64,000 bases of DNA from Microthyrium microscopicum (GCA_010405405.1 MU004231.1:4328884-4392883); one strand, 5' to 3'. Shown: positions 490 to 64,000, numbered from the stretch's first letter. The notes: generated by a model from the letters alone, not told the origin. Made by a program: numbers and translations.

Positions 490-545
490 AGACTAAACTA
501 GACTAAACTAAACTAGACTAAACTAGACTAAATAGGAATAGAATA
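490..545 (+). repeat. Degenerate pentanucleotide tandem repeat (gacta/aacta, then aatag)
   Basis: gactaaactagactaaactaaactagactaaactagactaaatagg read directly. Confidence 0.8.
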
Positions 546-559
546 GATTAGGAAAGTAG

Positions 560-42857: not shown

Positions 42858-43785
42858 GCTCGAAACAGCAAATTTGGATGTCTGGAAGCTGCGCCACGTG
42901 TTAGTGGGTTTTTTGGATGAGTGCGACCCGATCGTGAACTTACTGGCAGACGAGTCAGAATTTCGTTGGCAGCTGTTTGCACTTTCGTTGGCAAGCTACA
43001 AAAGCGCCAAACTTGTTATTCTAGTGAAGAAATTGAATAGACCCGATTTGAGAGGGTTAGCTCTGGTCGGTCTATCTTAGCTAGATGTAAATTTGTTGGA
43101 TGGAGCGCACGCAATGAGTTGGAGGATTCTTGAGGATTGTTGTGGTGGAGGAAATTGTACGGAAAAACAGCAGGTGATGAAAGTAGCTGTTTGACAGGCT
43201 TCCAATCAAAATTAGGCATTCAAGTCACTACCTAGTTATGCTCACGGTAACACAGACAAACGAGGGGCTTGTTTTCTCCATCTTCAATTTATCAATTTAC
43301 ATCAAAATTGGGTTAATGATGTAGACCAAAAGCATGCCGTCTGAAGGAAGGTGCATGTGGGGTTTTATACCGCTCTTTCCAATATCTGAACCACCCCGCT
43401 AGCCAGCCAGGTTAAAATGTTCGATACATTTGGTATGGTACCTGTATGGTTTTCAAGGGCGTTAGCTCAATGTAAAAGATACATTTTGGTTTGCAATCTG
43501 GTTGGTTGGATGCTTTCAATTCCGCATAAAAGTCCTGAAATTGTTACACAACTCTACAATGGCATTAGTCTTCTCATCCAGTATACCTTAAGGCATCAAA
43601 ATGGCATATGTTGTTCGGGTATAATTATATTCTGCTAGTACTAATACTTCATTATTTTAAACAACCCAACAATCGAAATCCGCAAACATAGTTACAAAAC
43701 CTAAGAACAAAGAATTCGTGAAGGCCCTTGGGGAATACCATAAAAACATAAGACAAAGAGAATTGAGCCCGTAGTACAATCGGGC

Positions 43786-44109
43786 TCACATCACGGTGCA
43801 GCCACCGCTCTTACCAGCAGAAGAAGATTCAGCTTTGACGGTCTTCTTTGGCCGCCTTCGCACTTGCTGGAGTTGACCAGTCTCCCTGTCACGACGGACT
43901 TCTCGTTTCGTTTTCCTATCTTTCTTGCCTGCCTTCACTGCTATAGTCTGGGGGTTGGTATATCGTTGATATGAATCCTGGTCATTGTTCGTGGATTCAT
44001 CATATCTAGTATCAGTTTCCCCATCATTGTTCGTCGATTCATCGTATCCATTATCAGTCTCTCCCCGACTATCCAGATTACCCTCCTTTTTGGTACTTCC
44101 CTGCGTCAT
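43786..44109 (-). CDS. Small ORF (107 aa) with polybasic tail and C-terminal CaaX (GGCTVM)
   Basis: ATG 44109; 14-aa duplication GETDxxYDESTNND; KAGKKDRKTKREVRR...RRRPKK...SGGCTVM-stop. Confidence 0.5.
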   Translation of the reverse strand: MTQGSTKKEGNLDSRGETDNGYDESTNNDGETDTRYDESTNNDQDSYQRYTNPQTIAVKAGKKDRKTKREVRRDRETGQLQQVRRRPKKTVKAESSSAGKSGGCTVM

Positions 44110-44140
44110 CTTCGGGCCCAAAAAAATTCAGGAAGTTGGT

Positions 44141-46102
44141 TTATCGCCAAGGAATCCAGAAACTAGGACGAAGAGGATTGAGTGGACGAGAACGACGACG
44201 ACGATAGACGTGGTCTCCTCTATATCCAAATGGGACGCCAGTGTGTGGGTCTAGGAACTCGTAGCCTTGAGGATAGCGGTTCTGGTAACGCTGAGCTTCT
44301 AGATATTGCTGGTGGTACTGGCTAAGATTATAATTTCCTGGCCAATAATGCCCTGCGTGCTGATTTGCTGGTGGCGGATTGAATTCTTCCTGATAGAAAT
44401 TTGAGCCTTGATTCGCTGAACCAAAAAAATGGTTATTAATGGCAGGTGCGCTCGAGTTATGTTCCAGTCGTTGTCCGCCAGCTGCCAAAGGGAGGCGACG
44501 CTGTTCGCGGCGCGGCTCATTGTTCCCAGAAGAAAGACCAGAATTCATGGAAACTGACAAAGCTTCGTAGGAGATGGAACAAAACGCCGGATGGGGATGG
44601 CCCGCCAAGAACGAGTTGTAGGCGTTTACAATAAGTCTACGGTTCTCAAGGGGCAGGTCGTGGGCCATGATTGCTTCTCGGATGTTTTCTAGCGAATCTG
44701 CGACAGATGCCAGACGAACAGCTTCTTGAGCCTCCTCTGTCTCTGCGGCCTGTGCCCGCGCCATGGACTGATTATATTCCTCCAGGGACAAAGCAATTGC
44801 CCGCTCTAGAGCGCCATCAGACTCCACGAGTTCTGGGCTCGAAACTCGCGGGATATTTTGCTCCGATGTTGACGCCGCCTGGTGGGTTCGACGCACAGAT
44901 TTCGATTTCGGGGGTGGCTGAACAGGTGCTTCCGGCATTGAGCCTGATCGAGAAGTTGTGAGAGATGGGGAAGGGGAAGTTGGCGGCTGAGCACGTCGAG
45001 AATGTGACTGTTGCGCTGCAGGGACAGGTGCTGGCTGTCGACGACTGGACTTGCGTGGTGTGGGAGCAGGAAGTGGTGATGCGGATGCAGCAGAACCTCC
45101 TGGAGTGCTGTCAGTGCCATTATTTACCGTAGTCGTCTTTAGTGACCGAGCTCGAACAGAGCTGGACGAAATTTGAGTTGACGCTCCGATTGCTACTGCA
45201 GGTGATGGATTGCCAGATTGTCGATTTGAAATAGTGGTATTTGTGCTTCGGTCAGCGGGTTTGAGTTTGTCTGTTGACTTGGTTGAAGTGCCAGATCGGC
45301 TTCCAGATACAGATTGAGAAGATGTATTGTTGCCAACCTTGCTCTTTGCCAGCTTCTTTGCCTCATCAGTGCTAGATTGAATTCCAGGTTCACGTTGAGA
45401 AGATGTATTGTTGTCGACCTTGCTCTTTGCTGCTTTCTTTGCATCATCAGTGCTAGATTGAATTCCAGATTCTGGCTGAGAAGATGATTTGTTGTCAACC
45501 TTGCTATTTGTCAGCTTCTTTGCCTCATCATTGCCATGAGATGCTCCTGAGGTCTTAGGAACGTTTTCCCAGCCCCAAGCCGATGAAGAGTTTGCTTCAG
45601 TAGCTGGGGTCGTACCCTTCTTCAAAATGCTCTTCGGTGTCGCACTCACTGGCTGTAAGCTAGAAGTCTCCGCCGATTTAGTCCCTGGCTTTTCTGTCGC
45701 TACCGGCTTTGGAGTTGCGTTTTCTTTGTCTTCATCCTCGTAAATTGTCAACGCCTCGATTCGCGACGATAGGCCATGGCGAGCAGATTTACGGCGGGAC
45801 GAAGGTTGAGGAAAGAGTGGCGCAGGAGTAGCTTCCTCTTCTTTCTCTTCAACCTCTGCCGGTGCTTCAAAGGCGGTATTTGTACGAGACTTTCCCTTGC
45901 GAGCTAGTCGCGCCAAGTCGGACTCGTCTGGTACTTCGGGGTTCGCCTCAGACTCTTCTAGTGTTGGCAACTTCTGAACAACGTCGTTCGAACCAGATGC
46001 ACGTGTTGAAGAAGCTGGAGCTCCAGCAGGCATACGCTCTGCGGAGGCAGCAGCAGCAGCAGCTGCCTTAGCTTTGGCTTTTGCTTTGGCGTTCTTGCCC
46101 AT
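44141..46102 (-). CDS. Disordered orphan protein, paralog A (653 aa)
   Basis: Long intronless ORF; shares MG.K.KAKA, PLFP...RHGLSSR...TI.ED..DKEN and terminal FWIPW with the ORF at 47732-50884; three ~27-aa repeats; UIM-like segment. Confidence 0.85.
   Translation of the reverse strand: MGKNAKAKAKAKAAAAAAASAERMPAGAPASSTRASGSNDVVQKLPTLEESEANPEVPDESDLARLARKGKSRTNTAFEAPAEVEEKEEEATPAPLFPQPSSRRKSARHGLSSRIEALTIYEDEDKENATPKPVATEKPGTKSAETSSLQPVSATPKSILKKGTTPATEANSSSAWGWENVPKTSGASHGNDEAKKLTNSKVDNKSSSQPESGIQSSTDDAKKAAKSKVDNNTSSQREPGIQSSTDEAKKLAKSKVGNNTSSQSVSGSRSGTSTKSTDKLKPADRSTNTTISNRQSGNPSPAVAIGASTQISSSSVRARSLKTTTVNNGTDSTPGGSAASASPLPAPTPRKSSRRQPAPVPAAQQSHSRRAQPPTSPSPSLTTSRSGSMPEAPVQPPPKSKSVRRTHQAASTSEQNIPRVSSPELVESDGALERAIALSLEEYNQSMARAQAAETEEAQEAVRLASVADSLENIREAIMAHDLPLENRRLIVNAYNSFLAGHPHPAFCSISYEALSVSMNSGLSSGNNEPRREQRRLPLAAGGQRLEHNSSAPAINNHFFGSANQGSNFYQEEFNPPPANQHAGHYWPGNYNLSQYHQQYLEAQRYQNRYPQGYEFLDPHTGVPFGYRGDHVYRRRRSRPLNPLRPSFWIPWR
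45310..45535 (-). repeat. Three ~81-nt coding tandem repeats (DEAKK..KSKVDN.TSSQ.E.GIQSST)
   Basis: catcagtgctagattgaattccag occurs twice 81 nt apart; peptide unit repeated three times. Confidence 0.9.
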
Positions 46103-47731
46103 TGTGGAAGAGGCAGCTGGTAGACTCGATAGGAGGTAGAAAGGAGGGAAGAAGAAAAAGATGAAAGAGAAGTTGAAAGGGAAGCAAAGTGGTGAAAGTG
46201 TGTTGGAGCGTGGAAATGGTGTTGGAATTGTGGTTATGGAGTTGATAGAATTCGTGGGTCTATAGAGCTTGAGTGATTTTGATCGGGTGTGGGAGCAGTG
46301 TTTTGAAGAATTGTAGGAACGAGGGGATCTCTTCTGCTGAAATAGTAAAAATATTTGGTAGGGAACGGTTTTCAGGTGGACAAGGGAGACTTCAGTGACT
46401 ATCGTCAGTGACTATTTTGGTCCAAAGCGACACCAAAAGCAACCTCTGTCCCAGCGATTCAGTAACTATACCTAGAGACCTACCTGAGTACCTCGATAAG
46501 GTAGCTATCGAGAGGGGAAAGAGTATCGCCACATGATTTGAGTCAGCCATTATGACCAATGGAGACACCAGGTCGAGGCGCGAGAAGTGATCATCCCACC
46601 ACCTCAACCAGCCCGCTTTAGGATATCTTTTTGTGAAAGCGGCTTCATTAACCGCTAGTCGTCTTCCACAGAGGTAGATATCTGAACTCGTTCACTACAT
46701 CGATCACGTATGTTTCAGTGACTGCTATCATTGATTACCTCCCAGAGCGGGCGGACTTGCATTCGCAACTAGGCGAACCAGATTTGCATCCGCAATGCTA
46801 GCAATCAGATCGGATTGACAAGAAATACACCATAGCTGATCAGCTTGTGTAAAGGAGTAAAGTTTTGTTTGGACGCAATTGGAGATTTTGACTATTCGGC
46901 GTGTGGACTTAGAGGTATTTTCACGATATGTAACAGGAAACTCAGAAAATATTGAAGTGAATGACCCTCGAGGCAGACCAGAGATTCCAGAATTCGGACA
47001 TAATGGTGACACAAGTGCGATGTGCTCGCAGTTGGACATCATGGCCTTCAATTCCTACCTTTCCAAGAGGCAAAAAAACCTCAAAAGATCGATATAGAGC
47101 AGACCTTACAAGGAAGAATACCTACCTAGGTAACATAATATTAACTGTATGCTATGGCTTGATAAGCATCATGACTCATGAGTCCTTTCAACTTGTGTTT
47201 TCTTTTGCCTGAAAATGTCATTAGCAAGTATCTCTAGTCGTATACCACTAGACTCAATATCGGGTTCGGGTCGAGGATCTGAGTGGGCCACAATGTTGGG
47301 AAATGACTCGCTCCTAGAACAAGTCAACTTCGGCACTCGAGTATTCCTGTATTACAGCCATGCTTATTCTTAAGCCCCATATCCTCCTGCTCGGCTGCAT
47401 GTTCATCGTTTTCAAATGACAAACGCTGCAAACGGCAAATCACAGTTTCAAACTAGCTGGGGAAATGATCATCTGTCACGCTTTATATTGGAAGAGGTGT
47501 TGTATCATTTGAGTGAGTTTGGTTCATTAATTATAGTACAGTACATTTCAAGCTTCTCCAATGCGATGAAAATAAATTTTCATCTTGCTTGAAGGGAACA
47601 TAACAATTCCTTCATCATAATGGTCGGTACTCCCTACTCGCTATGCAACGGCCACTTTCCCCCTGATCATCTACAGTATCCTCACCGCCTAGTTACCAAG
47701 CGTCGAACCTTGCCGGTTTTGGAATGTCCTT

Positions 47732-50700
47732 CTACTTCCAGGGAATCCAGAAATTAGCCGAGGCCGGATTGTGAGTGAAGACTCGTCGCAAAGCGTTGTT
47801 GTGATCGTTAGGTCCCCAACCGCGACTATCGCGACCGTGATGACCGTGATGACCGTGATGACCATGATGACCGTGATGACCGTGATGACCGTGATGACCG
47901 TGATGACCGCGATGATGTCTAGCGGGGATTGGGAGCACGTCTCGAGGAGCGTGGTAAGCTGGATAGTCTGGGAAGTCTGGGAAGGCTGGAAAGGCTGGAA
48001 AAGCTGGAAAGACCGGAAAAGCTGCTGGAAAGACCGGAAATCCTGAATGGGCTGGATAAGCTGGATGAGCTGGTGTAATTTCTTGCCAGTATTCGTTTTG
48101 ATCAAGCACACTATTACAATTCCAGCAGGCGTGACGGAGGCAATAGTCCGTGTGAGCTTCGACACAGCCGAGGCACCCATGCTGTTGACAGTATGGGAAG
48201 ACAAGATGGCCATATCGATCAATACGTTCTTGGAGCGGGGGGTCTATGCACCGTGGCACATATTCCTGCTGATTGTTGGCCGCAGGCTGGACAGCACGAG
48301 AGACGCCCACTTGTGGAGAAGGACGGGCCATTCTATCATTTTCTGGAGCGGACTGGCCAACATTTGAATAGTAGCTGCGAAGAGCCTCATCAGCTGCTTC
48401 TGGCGTTATACCTGGAACACGAAGTCGCCCTTGCAATATTCGCCGCTCCTCTTCCTTTATCATTTCAACAACATTACGACGACTGTTTGAGTCCATGTTT
48501 GCGATGACTTGAGCATGAGTTCGGATCTCAGGAATCGCCTCTGGCACTGGATGAGCTGCTTGCCGAGACATGGCCGGTTGGCGATTCTGTCGTTGCTGCT
48601 GCCAATACTCTAGCTCTATTTGCTGTGCAGCAGAAGCTTGAATATCTCGCAGCTGCTCTTCGCTCAGAGGTGGATGTTGAGTTTGGTTTGGGACTTGTTG
48701 AATTTGGGCAACAGGCTCTTCGATGTGGGGAGCAGGTTGTCGGGTTCGTCTACTTCGTCGAGCTCGTCGAGGAGGCGAGACTTGCTGAACCTCTTGTTGA
48801 ACCTCTTGTTGGTCTTCTTGGTGAACCGCGGGTGTTGGAGCTTGCCGTGGACGAGGAGCAGTAGGTCGTTGCGAGCTCTGACGCTGAGTGCGTAGTGGAA
48901 GATTTGGGGGAATTGGGGAAGGAGTTCGAGTTTGTGGATGAGAGGCTTGAGAAGAGGACGAACGGGTAGATGTAGAAGTTGAGATTTCAGCTCCATCTTG
49001 CACCTCAACAGCAGTCTCTTCTGATCCAAGGGAGCCTTCCTCATCAGCCTGTTCGAGCTGAACTACTTCGTTCTGCACCTCAACAGCAGTTTCAGCTATT
49101 ATAGAGGACTCTTCCTCGTCAGACTGTTCTGAGGGAACCGCTTTCTTTGTCTCGTCAGCATCATCCATCTTGTAAGGTGGCTTATAGCTACGAACCTGAC
49201 GTGAAGACGGCTTGGAAGAGGTGCCAGTCGCAGTATTTATACCACTTTTGACGTTTTTGGGCTTGGGCACCGCAGGAGTGGCCGCTGTCAGTGTTTGACG
49301 CGTAGTCGGCGCTGTTTGACATGAAATGATGGTCACCTTGAAAGGTACAGCCGCTCGTGATGGCTGAACAAGGCCATTATTCGAGATGGTCTTGTTTGCG
49401 CTAGCAGACGCAGGTTTTGACCGTACAGCAGCCCAGTTTGGTAAGTCAAGTGGTGTCAAGTTTGTGCTCGCGGACGTAGATTTTGAGCGCACAGCAGCCC
49501 AGTTTGGCGAACCAATTGTCGTTGAGACGGTATTCTTTGTGCCAACGGACGGAGATTTGGACCGTTCAGCAGCCCGGTTTGGCGACTCAAATGAATTCAG
49601 GATGTCATTTTTCGTGCTAGCGGATGTAAGTTTTGACCGAACAGCAGCCCGGTTTGGCTGTTCCAATGCCTTCAAGTTTGTGCTCGCGGGGGGAGATTTC
49701 GACCGCAAAACAGCAGCCCAGTTTGGCGATTCCAGTGTCTTCGAGATCTTTTTTCTCGTGCTAGCGGATGTAGACTTTGACCGTACAGCAGCCCAGTTTG
49801 GCGAGTCAAATGATTTCGAGTTTGTACTCGCGGACGGAGATTTTGACCGTACAACAGCAGCCCAGTTTGGCGAGTCGATTGTCGTCGAGAGTCCTGTCTG
49901 GCCAATCTCGTTGGTTTGAGCTGGACTGTCGTGTCCAGGCGTCGCTGGCAACTTATTGCGACCAAAGCTATTCGTTTGTGCTGATTTGCGCTGTCCAGAG
50001 GTCGTCGAGATCTCAGTCTGGCCGAACAGATTGCTCTGGGTTGAATTTGACTGTCCAGGTGTCGCCCAGAATCGATCATTGGAGCTATTGCTCTTTATGC
50101 TTACAGCCGAAGATTTTGTCCCCGTCTTGGCTGACTTTGGCTTTCCAAATGTTGCAGGGACGCCTGTCCCAGCAATTGGGTTAGTTGGAGTTGTATTTTG
50201 CTGAATGATATTATTCCCGCTCCAAGCAGATCCAGTGGTCGCTCTAGCAGCTGAGTGATTGATACTTGCGTTGTCAACAACGGCCTGAAACGAAGGCGAT
50301 CTTGAAGCCTTCTTCCCAGCAGCTGAGTCGTTGCCACTTGCATTATCAACAATTGCTTGAAATGAAGTTGATCTTGATGCCTTCGTCCCCTTGTTCTTGA
50401 AGATAACCAGTGGGGATTCATTCTCCTTGTCCTCGTCTTCTTCGTCGTCCTCATGAATCGTCATAGATTGTAGGCGTGAAGACAATCCATGGCGGCTGGA
50501 TACGCTTCGTGGACGAGGTTTAGGAAAGAGCGGCGAAGGGCTGGCCTCTCGTTCGCTCTCTTGATCAATCGTGGCACGGAAGATGGGCTTAGATCGACGA
50601 GTCTCCCGGGGTATTCCAGAACCACCAGTTCCATTTCGTGGGGGAGGCTCGGGCCAGAACGGAGGAGGCTGCACTTGTTCTTCTGCTAAGGTTTCAAACG

Positions 50701-50884
50701 CGAAGCCAGATTGGACTTTCTTGTGCTTCTTTGACACCGGTGTAGAGTCGGAATCAGATGTTTGAGATCCTTCGAGAGATCCTTTTGTGTTTGGCGCGTA
50801 TTCGGCAATATCTACTGACGCCGGTAGAGTTGAAGCTCCGAGTGGCATGCGAGAAGCCTTGGCTTTAGCTTTCTTACCGCCCAT
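47732..50884 (-). CDS. Disordered orphan protein, paralog B (1050 aa)
   Basis: Long intronless ORF with the motifs shared with paralog A; ~8 SPNWAAVRSK repeats, Cys/His cluster, (PAF)n and (GHH)n tails. Confidence 0.88.
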   Translation of the reverse strand: MGGKKAKAKASRMPLGASTLPASVDIAEYAPNTKGSLEGSQTSDSDSTPVSKKHKKVQSGFAFETLAEEQVQPPPFWPEPPPRNGTGGSGIPRETRRSKPIFRATIDQESEREASPSPLFPKPRPRSVSSRHGLSSRLQSMTIHEDDEEDEDKENESPLVIFKNKGTKASRSTSFQAIVDNASGNDSAAGKKASRSPSFQAVVDNASINHSAARATTGSAWSGNNIIQQNTTPTNPIAGTGVPATFGKPKSAKTGTKSSAVSIKSNSSNDRFWATPGQSNSTQSNLFGQTEISTTSGQRKSAQTNSFGRNKLPATPGHDSPAQTNEIGQTGLSTTIDSPNWAAVVRSKSPSASTNSKSFDSPNWAAVRSKSTSASTRKKISKTLESPNWAAVLRSKSPPASTNLKALEQPNRAAVRSKLTSASTKNDILNSFESPNRAAERSKSPSVGTKNTVSTTIGSPNWAAVRSKSTSASTNLTPLDLPNWAAVRSKPASASANKTISNNGLVQPSRAAVPFKVTIISCQTAPTTRQTLTAATPAVPKPKNVKSGINTATGTSSKPSSRQVRSYKPPYKMDDADETKKAVPSEQSDEEESSIIAETAVEVQNEVVQLEQADEEGSLGSEETAVEVQDGAEISTSTSTRSSSSQASHPQTRTPSPIPPNLPLRTQRQSSQRPTAPRPRQAPTPAVHQEDQQEVQQEVQQVSPPRRARRSRRTRQPAPHIEEPVAQIQQVPNQTQHPPLSEEQLRDIQASAAQQIELEYWQQQRQNRQPAMSRQAAHPVPEAIPEIRTHAQVIANMDSNSRRNVVEMIKEEERRILQGRLRVPGITPEAADEALRSYYSNVGQSAPENDRMARPSPQVGVSRAVQPAANNQQEYVPRCIDPPLQERIDRYGHLVFPYCQQHGCLGCVEAHTDYCLRHACWNCNSVLDQNEYWQEITPAHPAYPAHSGFPVFPAAFPVFPAFPAFPAFPDFPDYPAYHAPRDVLPIPARHHRGHHGHHGHHGHHGHHGHHGHHGHHGRDSRGWGPNDHNNALRRVFTHNPASANFWIPWK
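47833..47910 (-). repeat. 9-bp minisatellite encoding (GHH)n
   Basis: (gaccgtgat)n on the + strand, ~8 units. Confidence 0.95.
47958..48072 (-). repeat. 9-bp degenerate minisatellite encoding PA(H/Y/F)/PVF/PD(F/Y) triplets
   Basis: Repeated gctggaaaa/gctggaaag/gtctgggaa units. Confidence 0.9.
49340..49880 (-). repeat. ~8 coding repeats of ~55-80 nt (SPNWAAVRSKSxSAST)
   Basis: cagcagccc(a/g)gtttgg recurs at ~49426, 49492, 49567, 49643, 49711, 49786, 49855, plus a degenerate copy near 49350. Confidence 0.95.
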
Positions 50885-51882
50885 TGCGATTATAGTGATT
50901 CTTGAAATCTATATAGGAGAAAAGGGATGATGGAAGAAAAGAAGAAAGAGGAATCGGGGAAGTGTGGTTAAGTAGGAACAGGTTTGGAAGCAGTGTTGAG
51001 GGTGTTGTTGGGAGTTGTTATGTTATGGGAGTTGCAGATGTTTGTGGGGTTTGGAGTGTGGGAGAAGTGTTGTAGAAGGATTTGGGAACGAAAGAAAGTT
51101 GCTTGCTGAAATAGTGTTCGAGAGAAGCTTCAGTGACTACTATCACATAGCAGCTTGACCGAATGCGGCCTGAAGTGACTGCACGAGCCAGGAAAGATAC
51201 CCAATATGGGAAAACTGGCAAGAACAGTGAAGGAATATCAGTAGACACTCCAACTCCGCGAGAGGACCAATGGAGGAGCCTGTCGAGGTTGAGAGAAGGT
51301 AGCCATAATGGGAGGCATGCACTGATGGTGTTGAACTCTCATATTCCGGTTGTCAGGCCAGTGATGATCGTGCGTAGAGGTTGATATATGGCAGCTACAT
51401 CTTGAAGTTCCACCTGAAAAGTTTCGACGACTGCGAATGGGCGTCGCGTCTATGGCCACAATATGATGAACATCTTGTAGCTGGAGCTGTCAAAAAGTGT
51501 CATCACTTGTGCTGTTATCATGACATGAGTCTTCCCAGCGAATACTCCAAACAGATATCTATAATCAATGAATAATGACATCTCTGCAGTATAGGAAGAA
51601 GTAATTGTTTTCCAACAAAATGACCTCTCACAGCTCGAGATTTTAGTCTTTGAATATCACCTGCAGGGCAATTAGTTTCTTAACGCCTTAGAAATGGACA
51701 TCGACATACCTTCAATGCGAAACCATTGGATATGGTTTTGTGTTCTCCTGAAGAGTCACCTTTACGCAAATAACGGACCCAAAACTGTCAAGCCCCCTGG
51801 GTTATGTTGAAAATCAAGATACGATTCAGTATTGATCCTTCATAATTATATCAATAATCCACCCCCATCGTATGCCATGTCC

Positions 51883-52446
51883 TCACTTCTTCTCCTTGAC
51901 CTCCTCACTCCCAACCGGCACCAACTTCCCCACAACCAAATACTTCTCCAAAAACCTCTCCTCCCACCCCTTCAGCGCCTCCATCTGCCCCTCATCTAAG
52001 TCTTTGAGCGGATCCAACGGCCCCTGCAAATCCTCCGTCAACATACTCTCATCAAAGCTCCCCAACGCCAACCCCCTACTCGCATCCCGCCCCGCAAAGT
52101 TCGCATATGGTCCGCCCGGTCCGTAAAAGTTTCGTCCCGGCGATACATCGAAGACTTGGCCGCGCACGGCGAAATAGATGGGTTTGTTGGCGGTGCCGTC
52201 GAATTCGGTGAGCTCAGGGGGGGTGAAGACGCGGAAGACGGTGGGTGGTGGAGCGGCTGGGGCGGTGGGGATTGTTCGTGGACGGAGACGTAGGTAGATT
52301 AGGAGGGCGAGGAGGGAGATGAGGATTAGATTTATGGGGGTGCCGATTGAGGCGCTGGGTTGGATGTTAGGTATGATGATGGGAGATGTTGGGGATGCTT
52401 ACACTTGTGTTGCGTCGGGATGGTCGGGGGAGGCTTGTTTGTCCAT
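51883..52446 (-). CDS. DAP1: Membrane-associated progesterone receptor family heme-binding protein (cytochrome b5-like)
   Basis: N-terminal TM after a short intron, FTPPELTEFDG, IYFAVRGQVFDVSPGRNFYGPGGPYANFAGRDASRGLA, WEERFLEKYLVVGKL. Confidence 0.93.
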
Positions 52447-54295
52447 GATGGGTGGTTGTGGTGGATTAGATGTCTTCTTTGGTTCTGGGTCTAGCTTTGA
52501 GAGTACTTTGATGACCCAATGAATGGTCTTTGAAATGTAGAAAAGGGTTGCGACAATGAATTGTGGTTAAGATGCTGGAGATGTAAAGTAGTTTGACGTC
52601 AAGGTTGAAACGTAGGAAGCTCGGACCTTTACAGGTTAGAACACGCGACTTCTGGAGATCATAATCCTCCCAACTACAATCCCCATTCCCCAACCATTCT
52701 GCCAGTTCAAGAAATACATAAGTCTACATGTGATGTTTAGTCCTCAGAAACCTCTCCCTTGATCGGTTCATCAAAGGCAGCGGGTTGAAATAAGTCCAAC
52801 CTTATAGGCTCATGTCCACGTGCGATCAATGGAAAAGGAACCTGAAACTTGAAGGGACCGAGGATACGTTGGCTGTCAACGAGTCAACCAGCAGCAATGT
52901 TACAGAATGAGAGTGACATTGTCGCCCAAGACCAATGGCTCAGAACATCAACATTTTCCCGGTCCTGGTGGTACAATGAACAGGAGAAGTTAACCACAGG
53001 CTTATAAGCTTTACAAACGGGAACGCAAATCAATGGACGGGTGCAAACGGCATTTCAATGAACCTAGTAACGACAAATCGAGAAGACGATGATGATATTT
53101 CGCTGGCGTATTGAAAGGGAGGCTCCGTTCTAGTTTGAAACACAAGCACAGATGACTTTGGGAGGCCGAGAGAGCCACACCACGACGCTTGGCTGCTTTG
53201 TATCGACAAGGCGAACCATGGGTGTAATCCTCGTGCTCAGGGGTCTGGATGGGCAACGGGCAACGGATAACTTGGGGAACTCAGGGATCAGACCTGGGGA
53301 GGATGTTGTAGGAAATAATGAAATAAAAGCTCAGAGACCCTTGGATGCACATTGTTGACAGGCGATAAAGGTGTTAGTGACAGAAGGTTCGTTCCAAACC
53401 CTGGATCTGCGCTAGTCCTAATCTAGGATTAGGAAGTAGAAATACTAAAATTTAGCCTCTATTAGCTATTACATCTTTTTGCCTTTTTTACCCCTTTCTA
53501 TATATTACTTTTGCCTCTATTATAGCCTAAATTCTAGGCTCTAAGAAGATACGTTTTACGTCTTTAATAAGGTATAAATATTATAGTTATTATAGTAGTT
53601 AGTTAATTAGATTCTTTAATATTTCCTTTACTAATTCTATATTCCTTAAGCTATATAAACTATATTTTATTAGTTATAAGCCTAGTATTCTAATATATTT
53701 TTATTATTTTATTATTCTATATATAAATTTTTTATAAACTATATTATTATAATCTCCTAAATTCTAGCTATTACTATATACTAGTTTTAGTATTAATACT
53801 TAATATTTAAATTATAAATTAACTTATAATATTGCTTCTAAAGTTATAATCGTTACTAAAGCTAAAACTACTATCTAAAGCTATTACTCTTTTAAGGTAG
53901 AGTTAGAAAGTACTTTACTTTACCTATTCTCTTCTATAGTAACTTATACCTCTCTTTATTACTTTACTATTTATAATACTTATTTAAATTATTAAGAAGT
54001 AATAAAAGAACCTTACTATATTATTTAATAGTAAGAAAGAATAAGAAATTAGCAAATTAAATTAAGAAATTACCTAAAGAGGTAATTCTATAAATCTTAA
54101 GAATATAAATATTCTTTTATCCTCTCTTCTTTTTTTTTTCTTCTTTTCTTCTTTATTACGTACTTTAAGCTTTATGCCTTTACTAGTACTCTTTTTACTA
54201 TATTTAGCGTTTATATAACCTTTACTATTAAGTTCCTAGCATATTCTTAATCTTAATAATTTTTTAAAAGCTATTACTTCCTTAAACTCTTAATA

Positions 54296-54730
54296 TATTA
54301 ATAGCCTTAGTATTAGTAGTACTAAAATATACTAATAGCCTTAATATTTATAAAGGTAAAGTATAAGTAATACTTCTTACTACTTTTAATTACTATCTAA
54401 TCCTTTAGTCTTTAATAATTCTTTTATTACTATTACTTCCTTAACTTTAAGGACTTAATTACTAGTAGTCCTTACCTTTAAGGACTTAACCTCTTTACTA
54501 AGCCTAATACGCTAATAGCCTTAGTATTAGTAGTACTAGAGTACGCTAATAGCCTTAGTATTAGTAATACTAGATAATGCCTTCTAACTCCTTAATAATA
54601 ACTATATTATTATACTTACTACTTCCTTTCTTATAGACTTAAGCTACTAAGTAAGTCTCTTAGAGAAACTTACTATTAATATTATATAAACTACTACTAT
54701 TATTCTTTAACTTTAAGGACTTAATCTCTT
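54296..54730. repeat. Short internal direct repeats (~33-bp ctaatagccttagtattagtagtacta; ccttaactttaaggacttaa)
   Basis: Units recur near 54300, 54512, 54546 and near 54439, 54471, 54707. Confidence 0.75.
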
Positions 54731-54874
54731 TACTACCTTAGCTATAATAATACTAAAACCTATACTACTTTTAAGTATATTCTAAATTCCTATAGAATAT
54801 TATTAATAATCCTACTACTATTAACCTAACCTTAGTACTTTAGTCTAAGCCTAATACGTTATAACTAAAAGGTA

Positions 54875-54995
54875 TATTTAGTAAAGATATATAAGTGTCT
54901 AATTATTCTATATTCTATTCCTAAGTAGAGTAGAAGAAGCATTTAGCGAAGATATATAAGTATCTAATTATTCTATATTCTATTCCTAAGTAAAG
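54875..54995. repeat. Tandem ~64-bp duplication, possibly within an LTR
   Basis: gatatataagt(g/a)tctaattattctatattctattcctaagta present twice. Confidence 0.8.
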
Positions 54996-54999
54996 AGAC

Positions 55000-57900
55000 A
55001 TAACGCTAAGCTTAAACTACTTAAAGAGGAAATCTTAGAGGCCTAAAAGGTATAAATATCTTCTCTTACTTATTCTTCTCTTCTTCTTCTTCTTCCTCTA
55101 TACTAAGGTAGTATCTCTTAAATAGAGGTATAGAGATACTAAGGTAGTATCTCCTAAACAAAGTAATAACCTATTAGAAGTACTTATTATAAGCTTACAT
55201 ATACTTCCTCTAAATAGACTAGACGTAAATTACCTAAATAAGTAATCCCTTATTTTTTAGGAGTATAAAATACTTTCTTCCTCTTCTTCTTTACCTCTTC
55301 TTTTTCTTCTTTTATATACTAAGATAGTTCCTCTAAATTAGAAGTATCTCTAAAATAGCCTACTAAGCTAAAGGAATAAGCCATAGTAACTTAATATAGT
55401 AGTAGCGTTTTTACCTTTTAATTAGAGTAGTATTAAAGATATTAGTCCTTATAAAAAGCTAGGTATTATTCCTAAGTATACTATATAAACTCTATAGAAG
55501 GATTACCTAAAATAGTAACTACTAGAGATCTTCTTATAATAATTATATTAAAGAATAGTAATAACTAGTATACCTAGATTAATTCTATAAAATAGTAAGT
55601 ATATACTCTAAATATTTAAGATTATATTAATCTAGAAAGAACTAGTTCTTCTCTAAAAGAACTAATACGCCTATCTAAAATATACCTAATAGAACCTACT
55701 ATTTCTTAAGTATCTATAAAGAATAATAAGGATTAACTTACTTAAATAGTAAAGTTAATTCCTACTTAAGAATATAATATCTTATTATAGATATATAATT
55801 TAGACTACTAAGAGTACTAAGATACTAAAAACATTATAGTTAAGATTAATAACTTTCTAAATAAGATAATATCTAAAAGTCTTTAGAACTATATTACTAA
55901 TATCTTTAAGGCTTAAGATATACTTTAAGCACTTTAGAAAGATATTTATCCTTCCTAAACTAGTATAATCTTAAAGCTAGATAAAGAATTTAATACCCTA
56001 AGAAAGAGGTATAAATAGTAAGAACTATAACTCTAGCTAACTTACTAAATATTCCTTTAAAGAGAAAGTTCTCTTTATAATAAGGATAGAATCTTTAAGA
56101 GATAGCTTATAAATGCTTTTATAGATACTACTTAAGCTCCTTACCTTAGTGCCTAGATATAGTTTACTTATTATTATATAAAAAATAAATAATTTACGCT
56201 ATTAGAGTATATTAAGAAGTATTAAACTATCTATAGTAAAGAAACTATACTAGTATTACAATCTAGTATTACTTTTACTATTACCCTTAATAGAAAGACT
56301 TAAGAAGAGATATCTTAACCTAAGAAGACTTCCTTAACTATAAATACTTATTAACCTTCTTTAATATCTAAATTATAGAGTTCTTAGAAGGATAGAAAGA
56401 TAACTCTTCCTTACCTCTATAGTAAGATAGAACTCTATAATAATTACCTTTATCTTTAACCTAATAAACATCTAAATAAATAGTATCCTAACCCTAAAGT
56501 AGAAGCTAAAGTTAAGGAGAGCCTTAAGAATTCTACGCTTAAAGCTAGAGTTAATTATATTCTATAAAGAGAGTAAGAATAAGAGCATAGTAATAATAAC
56601 TAACTACCTAAACTAATTAAACATATAGGTATTAGAATAGTAGTTATAAAAGTTATAATATCTATAGCAGTTAAGATATCTTTTAATAAAAAGTTTATTC
56701 TAAATTCTAGAGTAAATATATATATTTATAATAATAAATTCTACTTTAAGATATATAAGAGTATTTCTAGTTCTTTAATCTATAGTAGAGTCTTCTTATA
56801 AGTTATAAAATATAGTAATATAAATGTTACTATTTTAGGCTCTAAAGGATACTAAATAGTTACTCTCTATAATATTACTTATATACCTAGCTTCTATAAG
56901 AATCTAGCTTCCTACTATAGAATAAAAACTATAGAATATTACTAGAATAACAAAATAGGCTAAATTAGGTATATTAAAATAAGAAAGCTTCTAGCTAAGA
57001 TTATCCTTTCTAATATTTACTTTCTCTTTAAAAATAATCTTTACTACACCTTCCCTACAATATTATTACTTCCTTATACTTCTATAGCTTCTATATCTAA
57101 ATAGCACTAATAAATAAATTATATTAGTAAAGCTATAGTATCTTATATAGAATACACTACTAAAGGCGTAAAAATTACTCTAAATATTACCTCTTCTAAA
57201 GATACTAAAGATAATAACTATTTCTATAAAATCTATATCAAAATAAAGCAGAAGAAACAAATCTCCTATTAACTAATAGATTTAGGCTTAAAGCCCTTTA
57301 AGAAGCTTTATATTAACCTAATTTAGGTTAAGAAAGGCTATAATAATAATTACTAGATTATTTACACCTACTATGCTATTATAAAGTTCTATTTACTAGA
57401 AATACTTCCTTAGAAAATATAAAAGAACTATATTTAATTCCTATGCTACGTACTTACTATTATTAAAAATATAAGTTATAAAGTAGGCAATATTAAATAT
57501 AAGGTCCTTTAAATCTATAGGAATTATAAGGCTATAATAAGCAAAAAGTAGGATAATAAGATCTAGCTAAATAGTATTATTAAAGAACTATCTATACCTT
57601 ATACTACTTTATAAAATAGTCCTATAGAAGTATTAAGACAAATTCTAATATCTATTATAAGAGTACTAAAATAACATAGTAGTTTTCTAGATACATTATA
57701 GCCTAAACTTACTTACTTAGTAGTCTATCTACTTAATAGGATCTTAAAGAAGTAGCTAAACTAAAGAATACCCTTTAAAATAGTATTTAAATAAGTACTA
57801 AATCTCTTATTAGTCTAAATTATTAGCTTAAAAGCCTATATTTATAATCCTAATATTCTAAAGCTTAAGAAGCTTTAATCTTACTTAATTAAAAGCTAAC

Positions 57901-58170
57901 TAATAGGTTATACTAGAAGTAATATCTTTAGGGTCTAAATTCCTTTAAATAACTATATTATTAAAGTATAAGATATTATAATTAATAAAACTATTAAATT
58001 TAATACTACTATGCTTACTATAATTAATAACTAATCTACTAACGTACCTCTAAACATACTATTCTCTTATCTTAAAATAGACGTTAATAGTAGTATATTT
58101 AACTTATAAGAAGCTAAACAACAGCCTAATCAAAATTAAGAGGCATAAGATAATTAATAATAAGAATAAG
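55000..58170 (+). mobile_element. RIP-inactivated Ty1/Copia retrotransposon (protease-integrase, truncated before RT)
   Basis: FILNSRVNIYIYNN (~56694; de-RIP FILDSGA..H.C), TLYNITYIPSFYKNL, K*H**INYI (WH..MGH), FYKIYI (C..C), PFKKLYINL (PFE.LHID), PYTTL*NSPIE (PYT..QNGPAE), LIGYTRSNIFRV*IP; protease then integrase order is Copia-type. 5' boundary approximate. Confidence 0.85.
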
Positions 58171-61100
58171 ATTATTAGAAACGGGTCGTTCTAAGTAGGT
58201 AAAGACTATAATTATTATGGTTTAAGTAGATACGTAAAAATAGAGACGAGAGTAATTGCTAGGGAGTTACTTAGACCCTTATAATCCCTCTTCTTTATTA
58301 CCTAGAGCTATAAGGACTCTACTAAGTTATCTATGTTTATAATAGGTTATTATTAGTTAACCTAACTAATAATGCTTTATCCTACGTAGATATATCCTAT
58401 TAGTAGTTATCTTAAATTAAAGGTGTCCTAGTTCTTAATATTATCTTTCTTCTTAAGGCTATTCATCCTAAAGAGTATATTTAAAGGTTTTAATAGATAT
58501 TTCTTATACTTATATATAGCTTTTAACTATACTCTATTATACTAAGACTTAGGAGAAGATAAGGCTTAACTAAATATATAGGATTAAGCTATCTATATCT
58601 TAGAGAGTCTTTTATAGCTTAGTAATGTCCTTATTCTCTAGCTTTAGTATATTATTTATTTAAGATAGATAGCCCTTTATTTTTTACTTACTTTAGATAG
58701 ATAGCTCTCTATTTTCTACTAGTCTTAGGCTATAATTAACTATATTAACTTAAACTTAAAGGAGTCTAGTTATTAAAGTCTAATATATTAATAAGATATC
58801 TAATAAGTAATTAATAGCTCTATTAGGATCTTAATTAGTTAATATTAGCTTTATTAGAGTTAAATTAACTTATTTATAAATATAGCGTAGTGCTACTATT
58901 TATATTTAATTAGATCTTATTAAAATGCTACTAGATAGTTATTCTATATATAGTATAGGTTATTTAGTTATTAAAATATATATAGCTTAACTTAGTTAAT
59001 TATACTATGTTAAATATACTAAATTTATATTAGTTTAGTATAATTAGCTTTATAGTAGGTTAGGTAGCTATAACTTATATATAAAACTACTTTATAAGCC
59101 TTATTTAGCTTTAAATTAAAGGCATATTTTGACTTTATTTTACGTTAAAAAGGATTCTTAAAGGAGTACCCCTTATATATATATCTTAATACTTTTTATA
59201 TTTAATTAAAGGTTATTTTACGTTATTTATAATAAGGTATTTAAATCCTTACTTAAAAGTTTAAAGACTCTAAGACTAAGATTATACCTTTCTATTTAGG
59301 AAGTTATAACTTCTCTAAGTACTTATTATACTATGCGCGACTTCCTTTTATTATAGGAGGCTCTTATAGGTCTTTATTAAGTATTATTACGTTAATACTT
59401 AGCTATTTTAAGAAAGTAAAGAGATTTAGGTATAAAATAACTTTTCTTACTCTAAATCCTTTATCTCTTATTTTTTATACTCTAAATCTTAAGGTAAGTA
59501 GAAATTCTATAGTTTTATAAATATATATAAAGATTACTATTACTAACCTATTTTACGTTATAAGTTTTTCTTTAGTAACTATAAATTTTCTCTTCTTAAT
59601 TATTAAGCTACTTAGCGCTTTCTTAAATCCTCTTAACCTATTTTAGTATACTTTATACTCTTTTAACTTTTAATAACTTATCTTAACTAACCTATATACT
59701 TTTAAACTTATCTTTATTTAAAGCAAACATTAATATAAATAAGTTACTTAAAGATTCTATTAAAGGCTCTTAAGTCTTTACTAAGGGTAACTTTAACTCT
59801 ACTAAGATTATAGTAACTATTCCTACTAGTAATAATATTATTATGTCCTATAATAACTAAATCTTAATTATTAATATTATAAACCTTATTAAAGTAGTCT
59901 TTAAGAATAAGATAGAGTAAGAATATGCTAATAAGAGCATTATAGCCTTACTTAGCTTATTATAGTACTACTTAACTCTAAATTCTTATTAGCGTTATAT
60001 AGAGGTCTATGTAGTATATTTTTCTTCTTCTTTAACTACTAAACTTTACCTTATTCCTAACTTAGACTATTATTATACTTAGTAAGTTAGTTTAGGTAAG
60101 TACTTTATTAAATACCTTAATATAAAGTTAACTAAGGATTATTTAGAAGTAATATTCTATTCTAGCTTATTTTACGTTATATTATACTAATATAAGTAGG
60201 TTATTTCTTATAAGGACCTTTATAACGAAATTAAGCTTATTTTAGTCTATGTTATAATTAATAAGGTTATTTATACTCTTAAGAATAGTTTTTAGGATAA
60301 ATTATCTTATAAGAATAAGTATATACTTTATAGTAGTATTTAGTACGCTTATAAGTACGTAGTAACTCTTTATAAGTTATAAGTACTTATTTTAACTAAT
60401 TCTAGTTTAGCTTTATATATTTAGACGCTAATTAGTTTATAGTTATATATTTAAGTAGCTAGTAGCTAACTTCTTTCTATTATATTTTAATATTACTAAG
60501 GATAGCTTTTATATGACTTATGCGTTTATTAACTACTATATAAGTGCTAAAGCTACCTAAAAGCTAGTAGATAATAGCCTTTTAGAATTAGAGAAGTATA
60601 TTATAGTTTATCTAGCTCTCTTAGCTACTAATATTTAATTCTATCCTCTTAAGTACTTTAAGTACTATAATGTACTATATTTTTAGCGTATAGACTTTAT
60701 ATATATTATTAGTCCTTAAGGACCTAATATATCTTAAGTAAGTCTTTTTATATCTATAGTAGGTTACTTTGCGTCTAACTATCTTATAGTAACTTACTAA
60801 TATTAAAGAGGCTCTATCTAATATCCTTATAAGCTCTTAAGTACTTCTTAAATGCTATAAAGCTTATCTTAGCGCTTCTAAGTGCTAAGAGGTTAAGGGC
60901 TATATTAAAAAGGCTATTAAGGCTTTTTATAAGAATAGTTATACTAATAAGGACTATTCTAAGGTTAAGGTTATAAGTCTTACTATAAAAAAGCGCAAGA
61001 TAGGCTAAGTAGCTTCTTCTTAAGTTAAAATAAAGTTAGATAAGTTGTCTTAGGTCTTTTAGAATTTAATATTATCTATACTTAGCCTTAATTAGCTAAA

Positions 61101-61499
61101 TAGGGCTATTTCTTATTATATTAAGTTATTTTACGTTCCTTAAGGATAAGTTAGTTAGTAGATACCTTTTTAGGACTTCTTAAAGATAGGTTTATTAGTA
61201 GATACCCTTATAGAACTATTATATAGCTAATTTGACTCTTAGTTAGAAATTACTTATTTTTTTATATATTTTTTAATATATATTTTAACTCTATTTTGTG
61301 TTATAAAAGATTCTTAAAAGAGTATTCTTTATATACGTATAGAGACTTATTTTATGTATTATTTTAGGTTATTTTATATATTTATAACTTAATAGTTTTC
61401 TTATATACTTATTATTTAGTACTATTTTTAAGTTACTTTAAGTTAATTTATTATAATATATATATAAGGAGGTTAATTTAGGTTCTAATTAATAAAAAA

Positions 61500-64000
61500 A
61501 TTATAAAGTAACTATTCCTCTTCTTTAAAAGCTTATCTTAAGTCTTTTAAGTCTTCTTTAGCCTTCTTAGTTATTATTTTAGTCTTATAAGGTTAAGATC
61601 TATTAACCTATTTATAATATTATCTAGATATATTATTTTATATTTAACTACTTCTCTAATTATACTTATTACTAGTATAATGCCTTTCTTAGCTAACTTT
61701 ACGTAATAGCGCTTTAAAGTAGTTAAAAAAAAGTTAGCTATAAGCTTTTAGGTTAATTTAGACTCTAGGTAATCTTTCTATTTTATAAGGTAGTAGTATT
61801 TATTTCTTTTATTTACTATATACTTTATTATCTCCTCTATATTATATATATTTAGGTCTTTTAGGTTTAAAGAATCCTATAGTAATATAGACTTCTATAG
61901 AAAGTAGGGGTTTAGCTTATATAGCTCTAATAGAGAGATATAGAATATATTATAGACTTATATATTCTTTAGGAAGTTAAGCTAGTAAGTATTAGTATTT
62001 ATAACTTTTATAATCTTAAAGAGACCTATATATTTAATATTAAGTTTCTTCTTAACGTAAGTAGTCTAAATATTCTTTATATTAAGTAGGACTTAATTAC
62101 TAACGTTTAAATAAACGTCCTTCTTTTCTTTATTATACTAGTTAGCCTAGTATAGCTATACTTTAGCTAATTTATTTTTTATTACATATTATAGAGATAG
62201 AATATAGTTTATTATTCCTTTAGTATTAGGTATAATACTTTTTAATAGCGTTTTAGCTAATTTAGAAGTATAGGAGTTCCTTCTAGTATATATAATAAAA
62301 GGAGTAACTCTAATTAATAAGTAAATACTATTATTATAGTTAAACTTAGCTAAACTAAGCTATTTTACCTAATTATCTTATTCTTAATATTTATAAATCT
62401 ATAGGTAGTACTTAACTTCCTAGTTTAAGCGCTCTATTTAACTATTAGTTTATAGGTAAAATACTATTAAGAGCTTTTTAAGGATAGAAAGGTAATAAAG
62501 GAATATTTTCTAGTACTTAAAAATAAAGAGAGGTCCTTAATTAGATATAATAGTATAAGGTACGCTATATAGGCGTATAACCTTTTATAAGAAGATCTTA
62601 ATAAGGTTTTTTATGTTTATATTCTTTCTTATTAAAATATAGTAGGCTATTTTAATTAATTTATTAATAACTACTATAATAGAGTTATAGGTTTAACTAT
62701 TATAAATACTTAAGAGTAAATTTATAATAAAATCTATAGTAATATCCTCTTATAGCGCTTCTAGGACTAGTAAAGCTATTAATAATCCTTTCTAGACTTA
62801 TTTAATAGATTTATTATGTTAGTAGTTAAGATAAGCCTTATAATAGTTCTTAATATCTTTCTAGACGTAGTCCTAAGTATAATAGCGCTTAATTTTCTTA
62901 AGTATCTTCTTTAACTCTCTATAACTATCTTCTATAGTATCGTTATAAAACCTTTATAGGATTTTCTTCTTTTATAACTCTTCCTTAATAAAAACGAGAT
63001 TTCTACTTATTTATTTAGCTTTATTTAAGTTATTCTTAGCTAGAGGGGGTTTATTAATAGCTAAGATCTTACTAGAGCTTATTTTTAGATATTTCTAGGT
63101 CTTAGTAGGCTTATCTTAACCCTTCTTAAGTTAATTTATAATAAGATACTACGTATTAATACTAATATATATAATAATAGAGTTTATAAGTTTAATAGCG
63201 TTAATTTTAATTATAGGAGCGTTATTAAATTATAACTTATTATAAAGTAGGTTAAGTAATGCTTCTATAGTCTTTTTTTATTCTTTTTAGCTCTTTTTAA
63301 CGTAGTTTAGATATCTTAAGAGTCTATTAGCTAAATTTATCTTACTTAGGTAATGCTTAATATTAAAATTATATTCTAAGAGTAAATCTACTTACCTTGC
63401 GTATATTAATAATATTTTTAGTATTATTTTAAGCGATTTAAGGTTTATATAATCTATTAAGATCTAAAATTGGTTTAGTAAGCTTTATAAGTACTTTCTA
63501 AATACTTTTAAGGAATTTATAATTATTAAGAACTTTTGTTATAGAGTTTTATAGTAGCTTTTTAGTAGAAATAATTTTTAAGAATAGAATATAATAGGTT
63601 TTTATAGGCTATTCTAGCCCTTATTGCGTTATCTTTAGCTTAATATTCTATAAATTGCTCTTTTAGAGATATTAGTTTCTAACTATATAGGAAGCATAGG
63701 GTTAAAATAAACTAAAATTAGCGTATTTATAAAAGAATCTTTTAGTTTATTAAAAGAATCTAAGGCGTCTAGTAGTAATTTAATATTTATAAACTCTTCC
63801 TATTATAGCTTTAAGCCTTTTAGGGCCTAACCTAGTTCTTTTTAGGTTAAGATGTTTAATAGTATAGTAATATAAAAGAATTTAGTAATAAACTAATAAT
63901 AGTAGTTTATAAAGCTAATAAATTTCCTTACTTAGTATACGTTATATAGTTTTAGCTAATCTAGGTACGTATTAACTTATAACTAATCTATAGTAGTACT
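61500..64000 (-). mobile_element. RIP-inactivated Ty3/Gypsy chromovirus pol (RNase H-integrase-chromodomain)
   Basis: Minus strand: ILVYFNP..PI*LETNIS (ILVHFDP...LETDAS), YSVPYTIISN*GPLF (HGVP..IVSDRG), IVFYL*TNS*IERLN (TAFHPQTDGQTERLN), VYNIFYISLLE (VHNVFHISLLE), YLIK*KDYLESKLT*K (YLVKWKGYPES..TWE); element continues past the window end. Confidence 0.88.

Follow-up and report, generated by a model that had tools for sequence, protein, structure and literature searches.

A Tandem Pair of Very Old Paralogues in Microthyrium microscopicum That May Encode Disordered Adaptors with a KEN Degron

Introduction

Are two large neighbouring open reading frames (ORFs) whose products differ over most of their length copies of one gene, and, if so, what has kept a few short blocks of them alike? 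The question is raised by a 64,000-nucleotide stretch of the genome of Microthyrium microscopicum (GCA_010405405.1, MU004231.1:4328884-4392883), referred to here as the window and numbered from its first letter. It contains two ORFs in tandem on the minus strand: P0001, an uninterrupted ORF of 653 amino acids (44141-46102), and P0002, an ORF of 1,050 amino acids, or 1,033 after splicing (47732-50884). All features of the pair described below lie on this strand. An earlier note, made by a model from the sequence alone, had placed both ORFs exactly. It described them as an intronless pair of disordered orphan proteins that share a series of islands, possibly cell-cycle- or development-regulated scaffolds whose duplicate had survived in a genome with active repeat-induced point mutation (RIP).

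As judged by comparison of their sequences, the two ORFs are true but very old paralogues. They form a genuine and, so far, lineage-restricted family whose disordered products are assembled from short motifs and whose function can only be inferred.

Paralogy of the Two ORFs

Each island claimed to be shared by the two proteins was examined by local alignment against composition-preserving shuffles. Two of the islands are solid, two are weak, and three (the SAW motif, the Gln/Pro region, and the "helical" region) are not above chance. The strongest is the central island, which BLASTP recovers in an alignment of P0001 residues 73-152 with P0002 residues 97-178 (39% identity, E 6e-11); its core of about 45 amino acids has a shuffle z of 20.8, none of 500 shuffles scoring as high as observed. 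It follows the pattern PLFPxP, seven residues, RHGLSSR[IL]xx[LM]TI[YH]ED, an acidic run, and DKENxxP. In P0001 (residues 91-131; 45710-45832) it comprises PLFPxP, RHGLSSRI, LTIYED, and EDEDKENATP, and in P0002 (residues 114-158; 50411-50545) PLFPxP, RHGLSSRL, MTIHED, and EDEDKENESP.

The second solid island is the C-terminal tail, with the pattern NPxxxxFWIPW[RK]-COOH. A BLASTP alignment (E 0.002) covers the final 24 residues, FWIPW among them, and the last 40 residues have a z of 8.4 (0 of 500 shuffles). FWIPW[RK] directly precedes the stop codon in both proteins, the tail reading NPLRPSFWIPWR in P0001 (44144-44179) and NPASANFWIPWK in P0002 (47735-47770), each followed by the stop. RHGLSSR and the C-terminal NPxxxxFWIPW[RK] are the strictest conserved blocks, and the positions of start and stop are conserved between the copies.

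The claim of a shared basic N-terminus is weakly supported (first 30 residues, z 2.6, 20 of 1,000 shuffles). This region reads MGKNAKAKAKAKA...RMPAGA in P0001 (46019-46102) and MGGKKAKAKASRMPLGA in P0002 (50834-50884); besides MGxxKAKA, both N-termini contain RMPxGA, which the earlier note had not listed. The TAFE/FAFE island is equally weak (z 2.6, 27 of 1,000 shuffles). The other three claimed islands dissolved under the same comparison, their scores being of the kind that shuffling alone yields: SAW (z 0.7, 253 of 1,000), the Gln/Pro region (z 1.1, 140 of 1,000), and the "helical" region (z 0.8, 101 of 500). The repeat-rich middle of the proteins likewise has a z of 0.2 (87 of 200 shuffles).

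The internal repeats of this middle region differ between the copies and so have expanded independently, as had been proposed. P0001 has an 81-nt (27-amino-acid) repeat present 3.1 times (45287-45534), and P0002 has 69-75-nt repeats present about seven times, encoding SPNWAAVRSKS units (49400-49890). Other repeats of P0002 are a 72-nt unit present twice, a 9-nt HHG unit present nine times, and a 9-nt FPA-type unit present seven times. A tblastn search found no third copy of the pair within the window.

Age of the Duplication and Selection on Both Copies

Over the 41 best-aligned island codons, the proportion of synonymous differences (pS) is 0.88, which is saturated, and that of nonsynonymous differences (pN) is 0.20. 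The same codon is used at 15 of 35 identical residues, and the best nucleotide match between the copies is 74% over 47 nt. Synonymous saturation combined with so low a pN indicates that the duplication is old, that the shared blocks have been held at the protein level, and that both copies have been kept by selection. The ratio of nonsynonymous to synonymous substitution (dN/dS) on the motif islands, which the earlier note had proposed as a check, is 0.15 for 20 codons of the tail. Both frames are open over their 653 and 1,050 codons in DNA of approximately 51% GC, and purifying selection together with these intact frames is an argument for both being working genes.

This genome has undergone RIP. 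The AT-rich blocks of the window (1-2000 and 54000-64000; 23-25% GC) are strongly RIP-like, with TpA/ApT of 1.72-1.74 and (CpA+TpG)/(ApC+GpT) of 0.10-0.16. They directly border the gene-rich segment, and the gene pair lies approximately 3 kb from the RIP-mutated repeat block. The idea that the pair is a duplicate that survived RIP finds no footing in its sequence: the pair carries no RIP signature, its synonymous sites are saturated, and its indices (TpA/ApT 0.54-0.62, (CpA+TpG)/(ApC+GpT) 1.3-1.4) equal those of a control gene and are as in ordinary genes. The copies are now too diverged for the question of RIP on the pair to arise.

Transcription and Splicing

Transcript evidence comes from one public run, X1, labelled "RNA?", in which 52% of the sampled words were present. 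A 5,332-nt X1 contig spans 47880 to past 52403 and thus covers P0002 from 47880 upward, in sense orientation. It omits three short minus-strand segments with GT..AG ends (49145-49195, 51659-51707, and 52355-52402). Such joints are the mark of spliced RNA, so at least the larger gene is expressed and spliced, and expression of neither ORF, which the earlier note had named as a refutation, is not what is observed.

The first of the omitted segments is a 51-nt intron within P0002 (49145-49195; ORF residues 564-580), which starts with GTTCGT, contains a CTGAC branch-like site, and ends in AG. The description of the pair as intronless fails for the larger ORF, whose spliced product has 1,033 amino acids; this explains why the 1,050-amino-acid form is absent from the protein collection searched below. 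The intron is in frame and free of stop codons, so that spliced (1,033 amino acids) and retained (1,050 amino acids) forms would both be translatable; X1 contains the spliced form alone. At the other end of the gene, an X1 contig terminates at 47555, 177 nt past the P0002 stop, in 21 loose, adapter-like letters; this is a library artefact and not a mapped transcript end.

For P0001, three X1 contigs of low depth (2.6-3.2) lie at or just past the 3' end (43430-43614, 43732-43886, and 43946-44251), and only the last overlaps the ORF, over its final 111 nt. X1 cover is absent over 44268-47437, which includes most of the 653-amino-acid ORF, and has no bearing on its expression.

Search for Relatives

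The proposal that the family is undescribed was borne out: searches that covered 1.84 billion representative proteins, 5.8 billion clusters, Pfam, and metagenomes turned up no relative. When either whole protein was used in a word-based search, only P0001 itself came back, the 1,050-amino-acid form not being in the collection, and an exhaustive phmmer search with P0001 against the 1.84 billion representatives also returned itself alone. The exact sequence of P0001 is present in NCBI/UniRef as a singleton cluster. A hidden Markov model (HMM) of the island block, a search that the earlier note had suggested, was run against longer proteins and at E <= 10 found only P0001 among 985 candidates. 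Neither protein has a Pfam match above cut-offs, and feature searches of the ESM Atlas gave no usable match for either, the structure rows all having a template modelling score (TM) <= 0.20. In metagenomes, 594 pattern matches were obtained, of which tblastn confirmed 0, and the back-translated pattern of PLFPxP, seven residues, and RHGLSSR occurs in exactly two copies in the window and in none in the metagenomes. These searches would probably miss relatives as diverged as the paralogue, so that "orphan" is in part a matter of detection limits and in part of a lineage that seems thinly sampled. The conserved aldo-keto reductase encoded nearby likewise stands alone in its cluster at 90% identity.

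The lack of relatives in all searches and the low-complexity composition of the proteins are what would be expected if the ORFs were not functional protein genes, being instead decaying duplicates, non-coding transcripts, or chance ORFs, or if they encoded secreted Ser/Thr-rich wall proteins. We regard this as very improbable, given the long open frames of 653 and 1,050 codons, the protein-level conservation at saturated synonymous sites, the conserved start and stop positions, and the spliced sense transcript of P0002. The wall-protein variant is further opposed by the N-termini, which are Lys/Ala-rich and to the eye have no hydrophobic signal-peptide core.

Shared Upstream DNA

Shared upstream elements had been claimed for the pair, and they are real: collinear exact blocks occur in the 700 nt before each ATG. 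Upstream of P0001, within 46151-46564, these are CTCCATTGGTC (46554-46564), TAGTCACTGAAG (46390-46401), ACTATTTCAGCA (46335-46346), CTCCCACAC (46287-46295), and TTTTCTTC (46151-46158). The same blocks occur in unchanged order upstream of P0002, within 50933-51275: CTCCATTGGTC (51265-51275), TAGTCACTGAAG (51128-51139), ACTATTTCAGCA (51104-51115), CTCCCACAC (51056-51064), and TTTTCTTC (50933-50940). Collinear 9-12-mers are thus common to about 600 nt of upstream DNA, and exact matches of at least 9 nt total 109 nt between the two upstream regions. Shuffled sequences gave a mean of 19 nt and a maximum of 78 (0 of 1,000 reached 109), and real sequences from the same window gave a maximum of 64 nt (0 of 276).

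CTCCATTGGTC is a CCAAT box on the opposite strand, and ACTATTTCAGCA occurs only twice in the 64 kb, with one copy upstream of each gene. Four of the six exact copies of the 9-mer AGTCACTGA lie on the sense strand upstream of the two genes, and this element may be a candidate transcription-factor site. The copies in this cluster are at 46390-46413, 46715-46723, and 51130-51138 (-), including a tandem pair 13 nt apart. Because these non-coding blocks have outlasted the saturation of synonymous sites, they are probably regulatory, and co-regulation of the pair is likely.

Disorder and Predicted Structure

Both proteins are rich in Ser, Ala, Pro, and Thr and are net basic (+16 and +24). The disorder attributed to them agrees with the ESM Atlas model of P0001, which has a predicted local distance difference test (pLDDT) score of 0.38. 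In single-sequence AlphaFold2 (AF2) models, P0001 has a mean pLDDT of 44.6, with 527 of its 653 residues below 50, and P0002 a mean of 35.8, with 960 of 1,050 residues below 50.

The only confidently predicted element is a helical hairpin in P0001 (residues 428-499, with helices at 428-480 and 485-499; 44606-44821; pLDDT 82-92). Weaker helices (pLDDT 50-71) are predicted in P0002 at residues 742-842 (48359-48661). The helices occupy a similar relative place in the two proteins, despite the chance-level likeness of their sequences. Residues 429-442 of P0001, at the start of the predicted helix, fit LxxAxxxSxxE and so resemble the ubiquitin-interacting motif (PF02809); Pfam gives the likeness 13.2 bits (E 0.086), which is below its gathering cut-off of 21, and detects no such motif in P0002.

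P0002 alone has a Cys/His-rich stretch (residues 878-925; 48110-48253) with two CxxHxCxxC units seven residues apart, which is possibly metal-binding. It has no Pfam match, and AF2 confidence is low there. P0001 has a single Cys. C-terminal to the stretch in P0002 are FPA-type aromatic repeats and eight HHG repeats (47834-47905).

The KEN Motif and APC/C

The KEN motif, a degron recognized by APC/C (anaphase-promoting complex/cyclosome), has the consensus [DNE]KENxxP and usually lies just C-terminal to acidic residues, according to passages in PMC5717348. The same account states that Asp or Asn at P-1 stabilizes KEN and that the chain is directed off the propeller by prolines close to the motif. 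Each of our proteins has a single KEN, within the central island: DKENATP in P0001 (residues 125-131; 45710-45730) and DKENESP in P0002 (residues 152-158; 50411-50431), both preceded by EDE. The earlier description of a KEN in an acidic, disordered context is thus accurate and can be made more precise, since both copies match [DNE]KENxxP directly after an acidic run. AF2 pLDDT is below 50 across both islands, which places the motif in a predicted-disordered region, as far as single-sequence models indicate.

We rank first, tentatively, a mechanism in which the pair, an ancient tandem duplicate, would encode disordered adaptors with a level set by APC/C through this motif. Selection has kept only a few short blocks, namely the basic N-terminus, the island of about 45 amino acids, the extreme C-terminus, and several blocks in the promoter or 5' leader; the repeat-rich middles would be free-evolving spacers. 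The proteins would act as flexible adaptors that dock onto folded partners via short motifs. Through DKENxxP, with the acidic run before it, they would bind Cdh1 or Cdc20 on the top face of the WD40 propeller and would, during some window of the cell cycle, either be degraded or serve as pseudosubstrates. To judge by the blocks shared upstream, the copies would be co-regulated. That the proteins are regulated by the cell cycle or by development, form condensates, or depend on APC/C is in each case inferred.

Known KEN-box substrates and pseudosubstrate inhibitors of APC/C (for example Acm1, Mad3/BubR1, and securin; PMC5717348) resemble the pair in that their [DNE]KENxxP follows acidic residues and lies in disordered sequence. 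A further likeness is the RxxL and the ABBA-like hexamer just upstream of the pair's KEN; in BubR1, D1, A1, and K2 contact one Cdc20, as described in the same source (PMC5717348). The pair differs from these proteins in having no sequence homology to them, in packing its three motifs within 21 residues, and in being far larger, with a conserved C-terminal FWIPW[RK] tail.

A number of points count against an APC/C role. From composition, we estimate chance matches to [DNE]KENxxP at about 2e-3 per protein, and a short motif can arise by chance. The KEN sits inside an island that is perhaps kept for another reason, so its conservation between the paralogues is not independent evidence, and the PLF...LSSR part of the island is open instead to an AFF4-like reading, discussed below. 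The neighbouring look-alikes do not help: the consensus given in PMC5717348 is Fx[ILV][FY]x[DE] for the ABBA motif and RxxLx[D/E][hydrophobic]xN[N/S] for the D box. RHGLSSRIEA and RHGLSSRLQS fit the D box at R1 and L4 alone, with Arg at P7 and no Asn at P9. LTIYED and MTIHED fail the ABBA consensus, having Leu or Met in place of Phe at P1 and, in P0002, His at P4. They fit only a looser ABBA pattern. Because both look-alikes fail, only the KEN was counted.

Some other motifs were tried and set aside. N-myristoylation of the MG start was dropped, as it would fit one copy alone, and by eye there was no fit to the PP1 RVxF, B56 LxxIxE, or LC3-interacting region (LIR) motifs. C-terminal Ile-Arg tails dock APC/C co-activators to Apc3, according to PMC5717348; the tails of the pair end in Trp-Arg or Trp-Lys and are not that motif.

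An AFF4-Like Cyclin-T Docking Segment?

The first part of the island (PLFPxP ... LSSR[IL]xx[LM]) admits another interpretation, in which it docks cyclin-T as residues 34-66 of human AFF4 do. The proteins would then be fungal disordered scaffolds resembling those of the super elongation complex (SEC) and recruiting Cdk9/cyclin-T, a role compatible with a KEN degron. The interpretation arises from a search of 177,635 distinct PDB sequences with a two-island profile, which matched AFF4 N-terminal fragments only (4imy_G and three others, a single protein; 16.9 bits, E 0.042); AFF4 also came first for the P0002 island by itself (E 0.18). The identical positions include AFF4 Pro33, Leu34, Phe35, Pro38, Leu48, Ser49, Ser50, and Arg51, with Ile52 (I/L) and Met55 (M/L). 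Alanine substitutions in AFF4 were most deleterious at Pro33/Leu34, Phe35, and Met55/Leu56, Pro38 is buried, Arg51 is in an ion pair, and substitutions of Arg51/Ile52 lower P-TEFb binding, as reported in parts of PMC3589825. PLF..P and LSSR[IL]..[ML] of the pair thus fall on mutational hot spots of the cyclin-T1-binding segment (PDB 4IMY). The architecture is also alike, both being long disordered proteins, rich in Ser, whose motif is N-terminal; AFF4 is described as a disordered scaffold that binds its partners via segments of 20-50 residues (PMC3589825).

We nevertheless think this interpretation unlikely. E values of 0.04-0.18 are not significant, the P0001 island alone has no PDB match at E <= 10, and full-length PDB searches with both proteins gave no AFF match. 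Overlap with contact residues tests little, because CycT1 is touched by 26 residues of the AFF4 segment, and AFF4 Tyr59/Asp60 can be brought opposite the island's Y/H-E only through a one-residue gap, which the HMMER alignment lacks. Pfam models exist for the AFF N-terminal region, the AF9/ENL-binding motif, and the C-terminal homology domain. No AF-4-type Pfam family was detected with the whole proteins at E <= 1 or with the islands and the first 200 amino acids at E <= 10. A folded C-terminal signature/homology domain of about 250 amino acids characterizes the AFF family, according to PMC6212713; no such domain is predicted in the pair, for which AF2 gives isolated helices and a disordered aromatic tail. 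The pair also differs from the AFF proteins in being fungal, these having been described from metazoa, and in the acidic run and KEN that follow its segment.

A fungal comparison is Ebp1 of Schizosaccharomyces pombe, the AFF-like subunit of a rudimentary SEC (PMC6212713). The relevant passages of PMC6212713 state that fungi had no identified AFF member until Ebp1, that Ebp1 is AFF-like only at its C-terminus, and that P-TEFb was not among the proteins co-purified with the Ebp1 complex, the last of which speaks against the AFF4-like interpretation. Like the pair, Ebp1 is a fungal, largely disordered "sequence orphan"; its resemblance to AFF is C-terminal, whereas any that the pair has is in an N-terminal segment and no C-terminal signature was detected in the pair. 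With the resemblance at opposite ends, the pair is not the Ebp1 orthologue. A literature search for a fungal AFF4/cyclin-T motif found nothing relevant. The fullest form of the idea, that the pair would be the first fungal AFF4-type cyclin-T docking proteins, SEC-like and bringing P-TEFb to partners, with abundance gated by the KEN degron, seems to us improbable.

It is also possible, and to our mind about as probable as the APC/C mechanism, that the conserved blocks dock other partners or serve localization, with the KEN match and the AFF4 resemblance both due to chance. Short motifs are degenerate, there is no family, fold, or atlas match, and RHGLSSR and FWIPW[RK] match no motif that we found; a literature search for FWIPW, RHGLSSR, and GLSSRI returned one unrelated paper and none of the three as a named motif. 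Against a chance origin, both copies exactly fit the extended KEN consensus in the expected acidic, disordered context, and the sole PDB match coincides with functional hot spots in a protein built along similar lines.

Neighbouring Genes

The gene pair lies at the margin of a housekeeping block that includes an ATR-type kinase gene (at about 33-41 kb) and genes for an RSE1/CPSF_A-type propeller protein, EMC1, an ankyrin protein, and the aldo-keto reductase, and a 10-kb block of 23% GC adjoins it. Upstream of P0002 is a separate gene of 171 amino acids (51883-52446 (-)), whose product combines a hydrophobic segment at its N-terminus with a cytochrome-b5-like haem/steroid-binding domain (E 6e-11). 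It has two introns, the segments 51659-51707 and 52355-52402 omitted from the X1 contig. The merging of its transcript with that of P0002 in one contig indicates that the two overlap or read through.

Past P0001 lies a 107-amino-acid "CaaX" ORF (43786-44109 (-)), which begins 32 nt after the P0001 stop, has a 42-nt internal repeat, and ends in CTVM after a basic stretch. Pfam gave nothing above cut-offs (best DUF7033, E 0.0096), and the exact sequence is absent from the protein collection. The low-depth X1 contig at 43946-44251 bridges the P0001 stop and the start of this ORF, which may merely lie in the P0001 3' untranslated region. The earlier note had made it part of a system with the pair; nothing ties its function to theirs.

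Implications

Orphan genes for disordered proteins are common in fungi, which tempers any surprise at finding two of them here. If neither the APC/C nor the AFF4-like interpretation holds, the pair would be a clean expressed orphan family in which the strictness of RHGLSSR and FWIPW[RK] is explained by no known partner. Were the AFF4-like interpretation true together with KEN gating, it would couple transcription elongation with the cell cycle and would supply the P-TEFb-binding half that the Ebp1 complex lacks; the AFF4-like interpretation would bear on a question posed in PMC6212713, whether fungi possess a scaffold linking P-TEFb with an elongation complex.

Should the motif readings be right, the pair would be a compact natural example of how disordered regulators evolve, with more than 90% of the sequence free to change and expand and some 70 docking-motif residues and about 60 nt of upstream DNA fixed past the saturation of synonymous sites.

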